43,322 bases of DNA from Escherichia phage PSK2. Every line of letters begins with the position of its first letter. The stretch's first letter is position 1. The notes beneath the pieces are model-generated. The model had not been told where the DNA came from, ran no database searches, and was given only the letters and a program-made list of their open reading frames with translations. The stretch lies in sequence record PP541514.1. One strand, given 5' to 3'. Of this stretch, positions 1 through 43,322 are shown piece after piece. Both the position numbers and the translations under genes were made by a program.

Positions 1-10
1 GGGGGGGGGG
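1..10. other. G10 homopolymer at the extreme left end (probable non-biological end sequence)
   Basis: Ten G; a matching G10 occupies the extreme right end on the same strand. Confidence 0.4.
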
Positions 11-500
11 CCGTCTAGATGGCTAGGTGGCTAGGTGGCTAGACGTCTATATGGCCGTCTAGGGCGCACCAGGAGGGCCGTAGAAGCTCGCTGCGAGGCT
101 TAAGGGCTATCACTGGTGCTATCCTATGCTTACCGCTATACGCTCCTTGTAGGGCCTCTGGGAAGCTCTGGGAGGCACTAGGGAGGCACTGGGGTTATCT
201 CTGCGTACTCTCTGGGTGCTCTGGGTGCTCTCTGTGGGGTATAGAGGTGCGCTCTGCCTTGCTTATTTTGTGAAGCCATAGAGTGCGCCGTAGTGGGGCC
301 GTAGTGGACCACCCAGTGCGCTGGCAGAGTGACACGGCGCTATCACTAGTGCGCACTAGGCTATCCATTGGCTATCCTTAGTACTTTACATTGTGCCGAT
401 TATATGCTACGCTGCGCGCTCCCCACTAGGGCGCACATCCACTACTCGCCACTATCCCTAGAGCTATCCCTTCTGTATCCTCTTTCATTCGAAAGCTATT
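1..500. repeat. Non-coding left terminal region with arrays of short direct repeats (GGCTAGGTG x2, CTCTGGGWGC variants, GCCGTAGTGG x2, GCTATCMY variants)
   Basis: No ORF with a ribosome binding site; several short motifs are tandemly or dispersedly repeated; resembles the repeat-rich terminal regions of T7-like genomes. Confidence 0.45.
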
Positions 501-508
501 CTGAAATG

Positions 509-525
509 ATGTTACAGGAGTAGGA
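509..525 (+). promoter_or_regulatory. Candidate phage RNA polymerase promoter, copy 1 of conserved 17-mer ATGTTACAGGAGTAGGA
   Basis: Perfect 17-nt match to copies at 21699-21715 and 33279-33295; sits in the non-coding left end about 260 nt upstream of the first gene. Confidence 0.4.
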
Positions 526-785
526 GGGTTTTAGGGAACTACATACATACTACCTACTACTACTCACTAGTGTTCACTAGTAATGCCCTATATTACGACC
601 GTAGGGAGTAAGCATTACCTACACAGTCACCGCATCACTACGTGCCCTTTCACTTCGTACGGGCACTACGTTCTGCTCTATGTAGTGCTAGATGGTATTA
701 GTTAGCATTGGCTAGTATTGGTTACAGCCATTGGCTACATAGTGCTATCTCTAGAGCTATCCCTAGAATATATAAGGAGTTATAC

Positions 786-1340
786 ATGTTACCGTCTAGT
801 CGGGCTATGGCTAAAGCCACTGGTAGTACATACTACTACACAGGGAAGCCCTGTAAGTATCAGCACATAGCGAAACGCCTCACCAGTTCTGGTGAATGCT
901 CTGAGTGCTTTAAGGTTAGGAGTACCAGCCCCGCCCGTAAGGAGCGCATGCGAGAGTACCATAAGGTTTATCAGGTACAGAAAGCTGAGGCTTTAAGAGA
1001 GTACCGTAAGACACGCCGACCTAAGCACATTATGACAGAGGAGCAATTACAGCGTAAAGTTCGCCACAATGCGCGCTACCGTGCTGCGCGTACTCAATCC
1101 GTACCCTCATGGTATGGTGAGTGGGATGAGTTTGTTATGTTGGAGGCTATTGCTTTAGCAGCGGAGAGGACAGAGTGTACTGGCATAGCGTGGCATGTTG
1201 ACCATATGCTACCACTAAAGGCTAAAGAGGTATGCGGCCTACACTGCGCGGGGAACATTCAAGTGATACCTGCAGCGCTTAACACTTCTAAGTGTAACAG
1301 ACTCCTGTACACAGGGCCGTTGGAGTGGCTAAAGGCATAA
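786..1340 (+). CDS. HNH family endonuclease with N-terminal Cys-rich region
   Basis: ATG at 786 preceded by AAGGAG (774-779); HNH-like motif WHVDHMLPL...GLHCAGNIQVIP...NTSKCNR; the track ORF 708 begins at TTG upstream. Confidence 0.55.
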   Translation: MLPSSRAMAKATGSTYYYTGKPCKYQHIAKRLTSSGECSECFKVRSTSPARKERMREYHKVYQVQKAEALREYRKTRRPKHIMTEEQLQRKVRHNARYRAARTQSVPSWYGEWDEFVMLEAIALAAERTECTGIAWHVDHMLPLKAKEVCGLHCAGNIQVIPAALNTSKCNRLLYTGPLEWLKA

Positions 1341-40577: not shown

Positions 40578-41160
40578 GGTTATTGCGGCCCTCACGGGGG
40601 CCACTATGCTCGGCGGCGCTATCACTGGGGTAATCCAGCACAACGAGGGCTTGAGCCTTACCGCCTACAAAGACAGCGCCGGTATCCCGACTATCTGCTA
40701 TGGGGAGACAAAGGGCGTCAAAATGGGCCAGAGAGCCACGCTGAGCGACTGTCAGAAGCAATTGATAGAATCAGCAGGGGTACATGCAAAGGCTCTTGAT
40801 GGCCTTCCTATGCAGCTCTCTGATGTAGCTCTGATAGGGTCTGTGGACTTTATCTATAATGTTGGGGTGTCTGGCTTCAACAATAGTATAGTGAAGCGAC
40901 ATCTCAAAAATCTTGATTATACAGCAGCTGGAAAGGCTGTACTGGACTGGCGCTATATTAGCAAGTACCAGAAGAATTCCCCAGGGATTGGATGGGAGTA
41001 CAAGGGCCATAACCGCTGGACCTTTGATTGCTCCCAGTACGTCAACGGACAGCGCAACAAAGTGTGCTGGGGCCTGTGGGAGCGCAGGCAGTGGCAATCT
41101 AAGGCTGTAGGCAACCGGTTTAAGAACGTGCAGGCAGCTCTATCTGAACTTAAACAATAA
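40561..41160 (+). CDS. SAR endolysin (T4-lysozyme-like muramidase with N-terminal signal-anchor-release domain)
   Basis: Weakly hydrophobic N-terminus VIAALTGATMLGGAITGVI, then catalytic motif EGLSLTAYKDSAGIPTICYGETKG (Glu, Asp, Thr triad pattern). Confidence 0.7.
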   Translation: MSLRTKVIAALTGATMLGGAITGVIQHNEGLSLTAYKDSAGIPTICYGETKGVKMGQRATLSDCQKQLIESAGVHAKALDGLPMQLSDVALIGSVDFIYNVGVSGFNNSIVKRHLKNLDYTAAGKAVLDWRYISKYQKNSPGIGWEYKGHNRWTFDCSQYVNGQRNKVCWGLWERRQWQSKAVGNRFKNVQAALSELKQ

Positions 41161-41170
41161 GGTTATTGGC

Positions 41171-43156
41171 ATGGAAAAATTAGTAGTTGCTAGACCTCCA
41201 GTAGTTGACGACGCTGGGTACTGGCTAGTGGACCGCTCAGCAATTGCTGGTGAGCTTGATTTTGGCCCCATTATAGCCCGGGCGTGCGCAACTGCGTCAG
41301 CAAGCGGTAAGGCTGTACAGTTTACGCACGGTAAAGAGTATTTGATAAACTCCGCGACCACTGTAAACGTAACCGGAGATTTAACTGTACTGTTTAATGG
41401 GGCTATACTGCGACAGGGCACTGCATCCGCTACGCTGGCATTCCAGAACTCCGCAGGGGCTGCTGCAGCCGTAAGCTCTGTGGAAGAGGTGTCCTACAAT
41501 TTGAGTGTGGATGCCAGTACAAATTCTAGGGTATCTAAAATTACAGCCCCTGGTCATACGCTATCTGTAGGGGACGTGTGCCGTATCTGGAGTGATGACG
41601 TAGTGGCTGACTCAGATGGGTCAAACCAGTTCCGCGCGGAGTACTTTGTTGTAGCGGCGGTGGTGGGTGCAGACATTTACAGCACAGGAACCCTAATTGA
41701 GAATTACAGCACTAACGTTTACGTGTGCTCCCCAGCTAAGCATAAACTCCGATTAGACAGTATGAGGGTTCAGAGTAGTATCACCCCCGGGTGGAACGCT
41801 AGCGCCTGCACTGTACGCGGCTTCATTGCACCACAGATAACGGGACCCTGCTCAGGCACTAATCTGAATGGTCCGTACCTTGATATCACAGGATGCTACA
41901 TGGCTAACGTAGAGTCTGTGATTGTAGAGTATCTAGTAAACGACACCAGCACCGGTAGTTATGGTTACGGAGTAAACGACTCAGGTAGCTACGGGACCCG
42001 CATAGGCTATCTAGCAGGATACTACACTAGGCACGTATTTACTACTACTACCGGGGGCCAGTCTGTCTCTGCTAATGACGGCAGGTGGGATCTGCGTGGT
42101 AGGTCCATGTTTATGTACTTAGACCATGCTATAGTCCAAGGTAACGCTTGCGGTATTGATACTCACGCCAGTACCTACAAATTCAACGTAGGGCATATTG
42201 TGTGCTTGCAGGATTACCGCGGTATGGGTGCCGGGGGTGTAGGCCTACAGTTACGCGGTAACAGCGTACGGGTTGATTCTGTTGAGGTAGTTAACGCCAA
42301 GACAGGGCTGTTTGTATCTGGGGCCAGCAAGACCTCCGACAACTTTATAAGTATTGGTCATGTACGTGTTAGTAGTAGGCAAGGCAGTGTACCTATAAAC
42401 CTACAGGGCAATGCCAGTACCCGAACTAAGGTGGTTATTGATAACCTCGAGTTTGATACGGTACATGATAGTGTAGTGTCTGTGAAGAATGCCAACGTCA
42501 TTATAAAGTATATCAGTGGAGAGTTTAACCCTTACCAGAATGGAGGGGAGCTGTTCGAGCTGAATACTGGGACGGTCTTGGATGTACTGGATGGGGATAT
42601 ATACATTAATGCAGGCACTGGTCATAACCTGGCCCTGCATAATGATACCGGCACAGTAGTTCGCGCGCGTTTACGATTTACTGCCTCTGGACGTGTATCT
42701 TACCTAGCTAGAAGTGCATCTCAGTATGATGTACAATCTGAGTGGGATGTACACGCCGATACTTGGTCTGGTACACCGTTCCTGGGAGTTCCTGAAGACT
42801 CAGCTAAAGTTCGCGCCAATATACGTGCTGGTGCTACCTCTTATCCACTGCGTTATAGGGCGCTAACTTACAGCACAGCGGGGGCACAGTCTGTGGATCT
42901 ACAGCGAGCTGGGGATGCGTGTATAGTACTGAGGGTAACTGCTAGTGTTGCAGGGGTCAGCTTAAGCTCTGTGACCAGAGGGGCATATCCCGGGCAGCAG
43001 CTACTTATCAATAACAACACATCCAGTGCCAGTACCCTCGCTGTAAGTAACAACAGCTCAGGCCTACTGACATTGGGGGCTGGGGTTACTCTCGCCGCAG
43101 GTGCCGGGCTGCTGTTGTTCTGGGATGGAAGTACCTGGAGAAAGGCTGGGGCTTAA
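41171..43156 (+). CDS. Tail spike protein, probable polysaccharide depolymerase (beta-helix)
   Basis: 661 aa last gene; Gly/Ser/Thr/Asn/Val-rich repetitive composition typical of right-handed beta-helix spikes; no T7 gp17-like N-terminal anchor. Confidence 0.6.
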   Translation: MEKLVVARPPVVDDAGYWLVDRSAIAGELDFGPIIARACATASASGKAVQFTHGKEYLINSATTVNVTGDLTVLFNGAILRQGTASATLAFQNSAGAAAAVSSVEEVSYNLSVDASTNSRVSKITAPGHTLSVGDVCRIWSDDVVADSDGSNQFRAEYFVVAAVVGADIYSTGTLIENYSTNVYVCSPAKHKLRLDSMRVQSSITPGWNASACTVRGFIAPQITGPCSGTNLNGPYLDITGCYMANVESVIVEYLVNDTSTGSYGYGVNDSGSYGTRIGYLAGYYTRHVFTTTTGGQSVSANDGRWDLRGRSMFMYLDHAIVQGNACGIDTHASTYKFNVGHIVCLQDYRGMGAGGVGLQLRGNSVRVDSVEVVNAKTGLFVSGASKTSDNFISIGHVRVSSRQGSVPINLQGNASTRTKVVIDNLEFDTVHDSVVSVKNANVIIKYISGEFNPYQNGGELFELNTGTVLDVLDGDIYINAGTGHNLALHNDTGTVVRARLRFTASGRVSYLARSASQYDVQSEWDVHADTWSGTPFLGVPEDSAKVRANIRAGATSYPLRYRALTYSTAGAQSVDLQRAGDACIVLRVTASVAGVSLSSVTRGAYPGQQLLINNNTSSASTLAVSNNSSGLLTLGAGVTLAAGAGLLLFWDGSTWRKAGA

Positions 43157-43312
43157 TTGGAGGTGCACTTAGATGGTCCAGTTATACACTGGGCCTGTAC
43201 TGGGACGTGCACGTCTATACCTGGACCTGAAATTTATTAGACTCACGCGAGCCCCTCCCTCACCCTCAACGCGCCCAGGTTCCCCCATAGGGGGCGTCTA
43301 GTGCATAAAGGA

Positions 43313-43322
43313 GGGGGGGGGG
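43313..43322. other. G10 homopolymer at the extreme right end (probable non-biological end sequence)
   Basis: Ten G on the same strand as the left-end G10. Confidence 0.4.

Follow-up and report, generated by a model that had tools for sequence, protein, structure and literature searches.

A G-tract inside the predicted terminal repeat as the probable breakpoint of the Escherichia phage PSK2 genome record

The virion DNA of phage T7 is linear and has a short direct terminal repeat (DTR), and DTRs are also documented for the genus Drulisvirus. Their annotated lengths are 192 bp in KpV48, 214 bp in KpV41 and 247 bp in AttikonH1. In these three phages and in fHe-Kpn01 the DTR starts at the same homologous base, the boundary lying between the two parts of the landmark CCTC/CCTCACCCT. 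The ends of fHe-Kpn01 are blunt and its DTR is 222 bp long, as determined by restriction mapping, ligation and Sanger sequencing, and PhageTerm (PMC7291057). Short-read assemblies of Autographiviridae often lack the DTRs, and errors typically arise at homopolymers (PMC10438801). Here, we have analysed the record of Escherichia phage PSK2 (PP541514.1), whose whole length of 43,322 nucleotides is called the window below and which has a run of ten G's at each of its ends. The window resembles the Drulisvirus DTRs mentioned above in its start and end landmarks, in an internal hairpin and in a G-rich patch ~55 nt from the left end, but it differs from them in that the record holds one collapsed copy of the repeat, opened in its middle, and in that the predicted repeat (~309 bp) is longer through extra short repeats.

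The phage and the ends of its record

PSK2 is a KP34-like podovirus (Drulisvirus, Autographiviridae). Two 12-kb end segments of the window share 82-90% nucleotide identity with many Drulisvirus records over ~80-90% of their length, all large ORFs lie on the + strand in the usual KP34-like order, and the ORF at 19223-21691 encodes a single-subunit T7-like RNA polymerase that matches PF00940 (E = 9e-90) and PF14700. The window also encodes a depolymerase tailspike and a T7-type terminase nuclease domain, the latter being what it shares with the T7-type packaging of concatemers with short DTRs. Three strong promoters of the KP34 type, which was defined at nt 475-490 of KP34 (PMC6834552), are present in the window. 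One of them, TGATGTTACAGGAGTA at 507-522 (+ strand), marks the normal early region just to the right of the left DTR.

The run GGGGGGGGGG occupies positions 1-10 on the + strand and is followed by ccgtctagat; the same run, again on the + strand, closes the window at 43313-43322, directly behind gcataaagga, as had been stated in the original prediction. The identity between prefix and suffix comprises these 10 bases only, base 11 being a C and base 43312 an A. A search for G8 on both strands revealed no further run of at least 8 G's or C's in the 43,322 bases, and the only other homopolymers of at least 7 in the window are a T7 at 1378 and a T10 at 26198. With G making up 27.8% of the window, the probability of finding G10 at two fixed positions is ~8e-12, and hence the pair is not a chance event. 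It had been argued that the runs do not form a direct terminal repeat. This does not hold in the literal sense: a 10-mer that stands at either end of the record in identical form and on the same strand constitutes a 10-bp direct terminal repeat, and this arrangement is a clue that the ends of the record overlap.

One G-tract in the relatives

Comparison with related phages shows that a single G-tract is flanked by the right end of the window (...GCATAAAGGA-G10) on one side and by its left end (G10-CCGTCTAG...) on the other. Thus, the run at 43313-43322 would be this tract met from its left flank, starting 77 nt after the start of the box ATTAGACTCACGCGAG, and the run at 1-10 would be its right-hand part, or the whole of it, followed by the ccgtctag... 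that comes directly after the tract in ZH5 and in the IMG/VR contig L009. Both of these sequences are continuous through the tract: ZH5 reads ...TAAATGA-G13-CCGTCTAGACGTCTAGATGG... and L009 reads ...ATAAAGGA-G12-CCGTCTAGA... When the ends of the window are joined, the junction aligns without interruption to most of the 60 relatives listed, and in RCIP0041 and other records that are opened at a different place the right end of the window maps directly before its left end. The flanks abut the tract on either side, and no homologous sequence is missing between them. In ~30 independent sequences the tract is present as G10-G14 or in the interrupted form GGGGGTGGGG, and it starts 76-78 nt after the start of the box ATTAGACTCACGCGAG; fHe-Kpn01, KpV48 and KpV41 have the interrupted form GGGGG[TC]GGGG, in contrast to the pure G run of the window.

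For PSK2 itself, we infer the continuity across the tract from relatives that share at most 90% identity with it. Searches with exact flank patterns in viral, metagenome and genome contigs yielded no independent assembly of PSK2 that crosses the tract, and exact-protein look-ups with the tailspike and one early protein gave no match. An identical endolysin is encoded on one 3.1-kb Logan fragment, which stops within the tailspike. A literature search retrieved no report of this G-tract.

At least seven relatives in GenBank are also broken at the tract, namely ZH5, Kpph9, ZHS-TASP18, QL, CX1, P1010 and Kpp-9. The first base of the ZH5 record lies 1 nt into its G13, and prefix and suffix overlap exactly over 127 nt; the two copies of the tract in this record differ (G12 and G13). 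Kpp-9 ends in G19 and its overlap is likewise 127 nt long; P1010 has a C16 at its start and an overlap of 111 nt. These three circle-like de Bruijn contigs resemble the window in starting or ending within the same homopolymer and in having a prefix that equals the suffix on the same strand; the window, however, keeps only the 10-nt homopolymer part, the remaining overlap having been removed or never having been there. The ZHS-TASP18 record begins at a G11, and that of QL was opened at the edge of a C13. Two further records have, like the window, G-runs on the same strand at both ends, flanked by homologues of the flanks of the window: Kpph9 (OR983332) starts with G6 and ends with G5, so that its tract is split 5+6, apparently without overlap, and CX1 (MT090077) has G14 near its start and G17 near its end, plus a few extra bases. 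Breaks at the tract are found in 7 of ~260 records, compared with ~0.1 expected under random opening, a figure that should be read with the reservation that many records were opened deliberately and that only coordinate-flagged records were checked. Finally, the IMG/VR contig L007 becomes a fold-back chimera where it reaches the tract, and it contains very long junk runs of G and C at this site.

Predicted genome ends and the repeat

Mapped and annotated Drulisvirus DTRs begin ~55 nt before the tract and extend for more than 100 nt beyond it (more than 150 nt in the case of fHe-Kpn01). By comparison with these relatives, the G-tract of PSK2 lies ~55 nt inside the DTR. The landmark at the end of the repeat, GCGCTC followed across the boundary by TGCCTTGCTTATTTTG, is common to the Drulisvirus DTRs and the window. 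The annotated DTRs of KpV48, KpV41 and AttikonH1 finish with ...GGGGTGCGCTC and that of fHe-Kpn01 with ...GGGCGCTC at the aligned position; the motif at the DTR end and the TGCCTTGCTTATTTTG behind it are found in the window, in ZH5 and in RCIP0041. The window has retained the sequence context of either cut site (identity 0.87-0.99), and the landmarks belong to the two islands with the highest conservation in the region. Because both landmarks are conserved, we predict the left genome end at 43258 and the right genome end at 254. The proximal 65 bp of the repeat would then extend from 43258 (CCTCACCCTCAACG...) to 43322, and its distal 244 bp from 11 to 254 (...GGTGCGCTC, followed by TGCCTTGCTTATTTTG), both on the + strand and in agreement with the homologous DTR starts and ends of the relatives. 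The record of JKT6 starts at the predicted left-end base, and that of Henu1_1 ends one base before it. The predicted repeat of ~309 bp, which would bring the virion genome to ~43.6 kb, exceeds the mapped or annotated DTRs examined (192-247 bp), and the alignment assigns the excess to extra short repeats. The original prediction that the true ends cannot be read from the termini of the record was correct in so far as these termini are not native DNA ends; it went too far in that the true ends and the repeat can be predicted by homology (between 43257 and 43258, and between 254 and 255). The 168-bp 'LTR' annotated in NKA196 was considered as a boundary reference and rejected, as its boundaries differ and its end lies 14 nt beyond the tract.

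The predicted left cut site is immediately preceded by a conserved non-coding island (43206-43257, + strand), where identity per 10-nt block is 0.87-0.99 among 18 junction sequences. It contains the box TTATTAGACTCACGCGAG (43234-43251, + strand), which occurs once in the window, and Pantoea phage LIMElight has a related box equally far from the annotated start of its DTR. With its box, the island is a candidate region for packaging or for recognition of the cut site. The box resembles the core of the T7 promoter; as a promoter for the phage RNA polymerase it was rejected, since the defined KP34 promoters differ from it in sequence and since it is present in a single copy. Across the predicted right cut site, identity is also high (0.87-0.95 at 244-273, + strand, 18 sequences).

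Within the repeat, a small hairpin, CCCCC-ATA-GGGGG (43282-43294, + strand), lies 18 nt before the G-tract and is conserved in nearly all relatives. When the stretch 43270-43322 was folded as single-stranded DNA, it did no better than shuffled sequence (z = +0.9). Directly after the tract there are four tandem 8-bp steps of the CTAGRTGG type (15-54, + strand), which form the least conserved part of the DTR (identity 0.15-0.29).

Origin of the runs at both ends

The record of PSK2 is very probably a DTR-collapsed assembly that was opened in a real internal G-tract, so that this one tract appears at both ends. The ends of the window are contiguous across one tract in the relatives, and independent assemblies break there too. 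Reads from the two copies of the DTR would have been merged into one copy, giving a circle-like assembly, and the contig would have been broken or opened within the homopolymer, which was retained on both contig ends. The break itself may have been caused by reads differing in tract length, or by junk poly-G reads attaching there, either of which would create a branch in the assembly graph. Depending on whether the two runs overlap fully or not at all, the tract in PSK2 would comprise 10 to 20 G's. It should be noted that assemblers typically use k lengths of 21-127 and that the overlap in the window is exactly 10 nt and not k-mer-sized (such as 127 or 111 nt), so that the full k-mer signature of a circular de Bruijn contig is not seen. 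The 10-nt overlap may stem from read trimmers that strip poly-G tails, or from a k-mer overlap of which only the non-homopolymer part was trimmed.

Poly-G artefacts are common, and it could be argued that the G's are absent from the phage genome and were appended to the contig ends, as no-signal poly-G from two-colour Illumina chemistry or through homopolymer tailing. The junk runs in L007 and the unusually long runs in some of the broken relatives (G17, G19, C16) would fit such an origin. However, both processes extend 3' ends and predict C(n) on the left and G(n) on the right, which is not the G/G arrangement observed; the original prediction had recognised this for tailing, and it applies equally to two-colour read tails. 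Moreover, a tract of similar length is located at the exact position in ~30 relatives, including records that read through it, and the flanks join it without any loss of homologous sequence. The likeness to poly-G tails or terminal-transferase tailing is thus limited to poly-G standing at a sequence end, and we consider it highly unlikely that the runs are spurious. Even less credible is the view that the record ends are the physical ends, with the terminase cutting at the G-tract and leaving a 10-bp direct terminal repeat of G's. A linear genome with such a repeat would assemble as seen, 10 nt being too short an overlap to close a circle, and the records of several relatives also end at the tract. 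Nevertheless, a 10-bp repeat contrasts with the ~190-250 bp of the family, and its boundaries lie off the family cut sites: in the mapped relative, one end lies ~55 nt before the tract and the other more than 150 nt beyond it, and the contexts of both cut sites are kept in the window. Among the tract-ended relatives, those with k-mer overlaps (127, 127 and 111 nt) are circle-like assemblies without real ends at this position, and ZH5, a member of the same subclade, is continuous through the tract.

A further explanation, which requires no break in the assembly, is that the record was deliberately rotated to the start of a reference, for instance ZH5, which begins at the homologous tract, and that the tract was duplicated by a slip in manual editing. 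Genomes are often re-oriented to a close relative, as described for fHe-Kpn01 (PMC7291057). This course of events seems improbable to us, as it does not account for ZH5 and at least six other independent records being broken at the tract in both orientations and with different overlaps. In either case the outcome is the same, namely one internal tract and record ends that are not native.

Under the preferred reading of a collapsed assembly opened in the tract, the earlier view that the runs are an artefact applies to their terminal position, which is an ordinary artefact of the record, and not to the G's themselves, which are real sequence, almost every relative examined having a G-tract at exactly this position. 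The finding reveals no new biology. The ends of the PSK2 record should be taken neither as genome termini nor as evidence for circularity nor as a terminal repeat, and the true unit length would be 43,312-43,322 bp, set by the length of the tract. Curators, as well as automated tools that assess completeness or call DTRs, should expect a misleading signal at the Drulisvirus tract, in view of the other public records that are broken there.

A more speculative view, which we regard as rather unlikely, is that the tract may have a function in the terminal repeat of Drulisvirus, as a conserved element that is hypermutable. Slippage would then make it vary in length (G10 to G19) within and between phage populations, which might tune concatemer processing, replication priming or packaging, and the assemblies would be broken by this variation and not by sequencing error. 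As a separate observation, the tract keeps its position throughout the genus, it is absent from the region of LIMElight that is homologous, and the two copies in ZH5 are of unequal length, as described above.

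Terminal G-runs and the junction of the record ends

The window starts and ends with a run of ten G (GGGGGGGGGG) on the + strand, located at 1-10 (followed by ccgtctagat) and at 43313-43322 (preceded by ...gcataaagga). A G8 search of both strands matched only these two terminal runs, confirming the original prediction that they are present at both ends on the same strand, and a homopolymer census added just two further runs, T7 at 1378 and T10 at 26198. The probability of G10 at two fixed sites is ~8e-12 (G = 27.8%); the terminal pair is real and beyond chance. The prefix and suffix of the window are identical over exactly 10 bases, so that, formally, the pair constitutes a direct terminal repeat (DTR) of 10 bp, which the original prediction had denied. 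The T10 run (26198-26207) belongs to a strong intrinsic terminator, as the tail of a hairpin with a 12-bp stem and nine GC pairs (26170-26207); it is positioned 3' of the small ORF after the capsid gene, and the gene for tail tubular protein A follows shortly downstream. Such a terminator is ordinary for these phages.

Both 12-kb end segments show 82-90% identity to several hundred Drulisvirus records, those of KPV811, Minorna, ZH5, SFN6B and Hope being the closest, which indicates that the phage is Drulisvirus-like (KP34-like, Autographiviridae, Slopekvirinae). All of its large ORFs lie on the + strand and follow the usual order; they encode a single-subunit RNA polymerase (PF00940), a terminase carrying a T7 RNaseH-like nuclease domain (PF22530) and, as the last gene, a depolymerase-type tailspike. 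The strong KP34 promoter T(A/G)ATGTTACAGGAGTA has been defined experimentally (PMC6834552), and exact copies are present at 507-522, 21697-21712 and 33277-33292, positions equivalent to the reported KP34 sites 475, 22197 and 33721.

Where a record begins at another point of the genome, the right end of the window maps directly ahead of the window's left end, as in RCIP0041 (right end at 5697-5832, left end at 5848-6551). A 450-nt query joining window positions 43123-43322 to 11-260 was crossed in a single aligned piece by most of the best 60 records. The left end of Escherichia phage ZH5 reads G12-ccgtctagacgtctagatgg, and the same junction is uninterrupted near its right end (...gcgtataaatga-G13-ccgtctagacgtctagatgg...) and in an IMG/VR contig, L009 (...ATAAAGGA-G12-CCGTCTAGA...). 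By comparison with relatives, the window ends are thus shown to adjoin and to share one internal tract.

With the conserved box ATTAGACTCACGCGAG used to orient all fetched loci, a G-run began 76-78 nt downstream of the box in nearly every relative, either pure (G10, 11, 12, 13 or 14) or interrupted (GGGGG[TC]GGGG); the window G10 begins at offset 77. Because relatives carry the run at an equivalent offset, the G's of the window are phage sequence and were not added, and the original prediction erred in treating them as suspect. The two tract copies of ZH5 itself differ (G12 vs G13), and the true tract length in the window phage would be within 10 to 20. Possibly, this hypervariable tract is functional within the terminal repeat of Drulisvirus, which is the only slightly novel residue of the G10 finding. 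Weak matches to the conserved island left of the tract (43-88 nt, 78-88% identity; H249, H260) also occur in A221 and ukendt, ~150-kb E. coli phages that are far larger than the ~43-kb window podovirus.

The terminal repeat and the predicted genome ends

The DNA ends of fHe-Kpn01 have been determined by mapping with restriction enzymes, by ligation plus Sanger sequencing and by PhageTerm: they are blunt, and the DTR is 222 bp long (PMC7291057). This DTR spans CCTCACCCTGAACG... to ...GGGCGCTC. In KpV48 (192 bp), KpV41 (214 bp) and AttikonH1 (247 bp), the annotated DTRs share its start base, after ...GCGAGCCCCTC, and have a common end motif, ...GGGGTGCGCTC, followed by TGCCTTGCTTATTTTG as read at the left end of KpV48. 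Both landmarks, start and end, are found in the window, and cut sites are therefore predicted at 43257|43258 and 254|255. The predicted DTR comprises 43258-43322 together with 11-254, a total of 309 bp provided that the tract is G10, and comparison within the phage family places the tract ~55 nt inside the DTR. The original view that the record termini are not native is borne out; the view that the true ends could not be recovered was wrong.

In an alignment of 18 sequences, the most conserved islands, 43206-43275 (0.85-0.99 identity) and 244-273 (0.87-0.95), contain the predicted left and right cut sites, respectively, and the least conserved stretch, 14-53 (0.15-0.29), lies just right of the tract; it should be noted that the sequences were picked via two short motifs within those islands, and that only the conservation beyond these motifs is independent evidence. 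Some further records begin or finish right at the left site: those of JKT6 and KPPK108.1 start at the equivalent of 43258-43259, and those of Henu1_1 and KPV811 end at the equivalents of 43257 and ~43260. LIMElight, a Pantoea phage outside this genus, has an annotated DTR whose start is within ~1 base of the homologous position, just downstream of a related box (AAATTTATTATACTCACGAGAG; L051, 255-282), but this phage lacks the G-tract.

Almost invariant in Drulisvirus, the box (A)AATTTATTAGACTCACGCGAG (within 43233-43257) has its end 6 nt upstream of the predicted left cut site. It is not among the known KP34 promoters, and it could act as a signal for packaging or for the cut site. Several relatives (L006, L008, L010, L019, L030) have an inserted gene, not the DTR, directly after the box ATTAGACTCACGCGAG; an HNH endonuclease is annotated at this junction in the KpV71, BUCT86, SAA231 and K1PH164C1 records, and these insertions look like homing-endonuclease insertion beside the genome end. 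IMG/VR contig L015 (43,809 bp) contains the box ATTAGACTCACGCGAG twice, 53 nt apart (7081-7149). Directly after the tract, the window has four tandem 8-bp steps at 15-54 (CTAGATGG / CTAGGTGG / CTAGGTGG / CTAGACGT), and GGCCGTCTAG occurs twice, at 9-18 and 53-62. The array is specific to the subclade of the window, and no other part of the predicted DTR is less conserved.

Origin of the record ends

Independent public assemblies are repeatedly broken at the tract. ZH5 starts 1 nt into its own G13 and its first 127 nt equal its last 127 nt exactly; Kpp-9 ends in G19, with an exact 127-nt overlap; P1010 begins with C16, which is the tract read on the opposite strand, and has an exact 111-nt overlap; and ZHS-TASP18 starts at its own G11, a start repeated by its last 28 nt. 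The circular record QL is opened at the edge of its own C13, and cmc20191 is opened ~12 nt past the tract. Kpph9 (starts G6, ends G5) and CX1 (starts GT-G14, ends G17-CC) have both runs on the same strand, which is the G/G end pattern of the window. In total, 7 of ~260 records are broken within ~16 nt at the tract, vs ~0.1 expected under random opening, a rough enrichment given that many records were opened deliberately and that only flagged records were checked. In addition, IMG/VR contig L007 (3300045988_019900; 13090-13272) turns at the tract into G23-T-G12-C10... and then into the reverse complement of its own left flank, a fold-back chimera.

In each record retaining a k-mer-sized overlap, one overlap edge lies within the tract, the outcome expected of a graph branch at a homopolymer of variable length. 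In the literature, Autographiviridae are described as often losing their DTRs during short-read and hybrid assembly, with homopolymers as typical sites of error (PMC10438801). We infer that the two copies of the DTR were collapsed, which gave a circle-like assembly, that the contig would then have broken in the homopolymer owing to length heterogeneity or junk poly-G reads, and that the homopolymer would have been kept at both contig ends. Spurious poly-G from two-colour chemistry or tailing, in contrast, predicts C at the left end and G at the right, the reason why the original prediction rightly saw no fit to simple tailing; with the tract also present in relatives, this explanation is rejected. 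That the phage has physical ends at the tract, i.e., a 10-bp DTR, is very unlikely: the cut-site contexts are conserved in the window, the mapped ends of fHe-Kpn01 are located elsewhere, and k-mer overlaps are present in other broken records. Deliberate rotation of the window record to the ZH5 start plus an editing slip is possible, but it leaves the other broken records unexplained, and even if correct it would not change the overall conclusion: the G10 ends are an ordinary record artefact on a real, conserved homopolymer.

A separate observation concerns NKA196 (L032, OR287808), whose annotated 'long terminal repeat' of 168 bp (517-684) runs from the final base of the tailspike CDS, as annotated, to 14 nt past its own G14 tract. 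Its boundaries differ from those of the mapped fHe-Kpn01 DTR and of the KpV48, KpV41 and AttikonH1 annotations, and it may be an assembly overlap and not a physical DTR.
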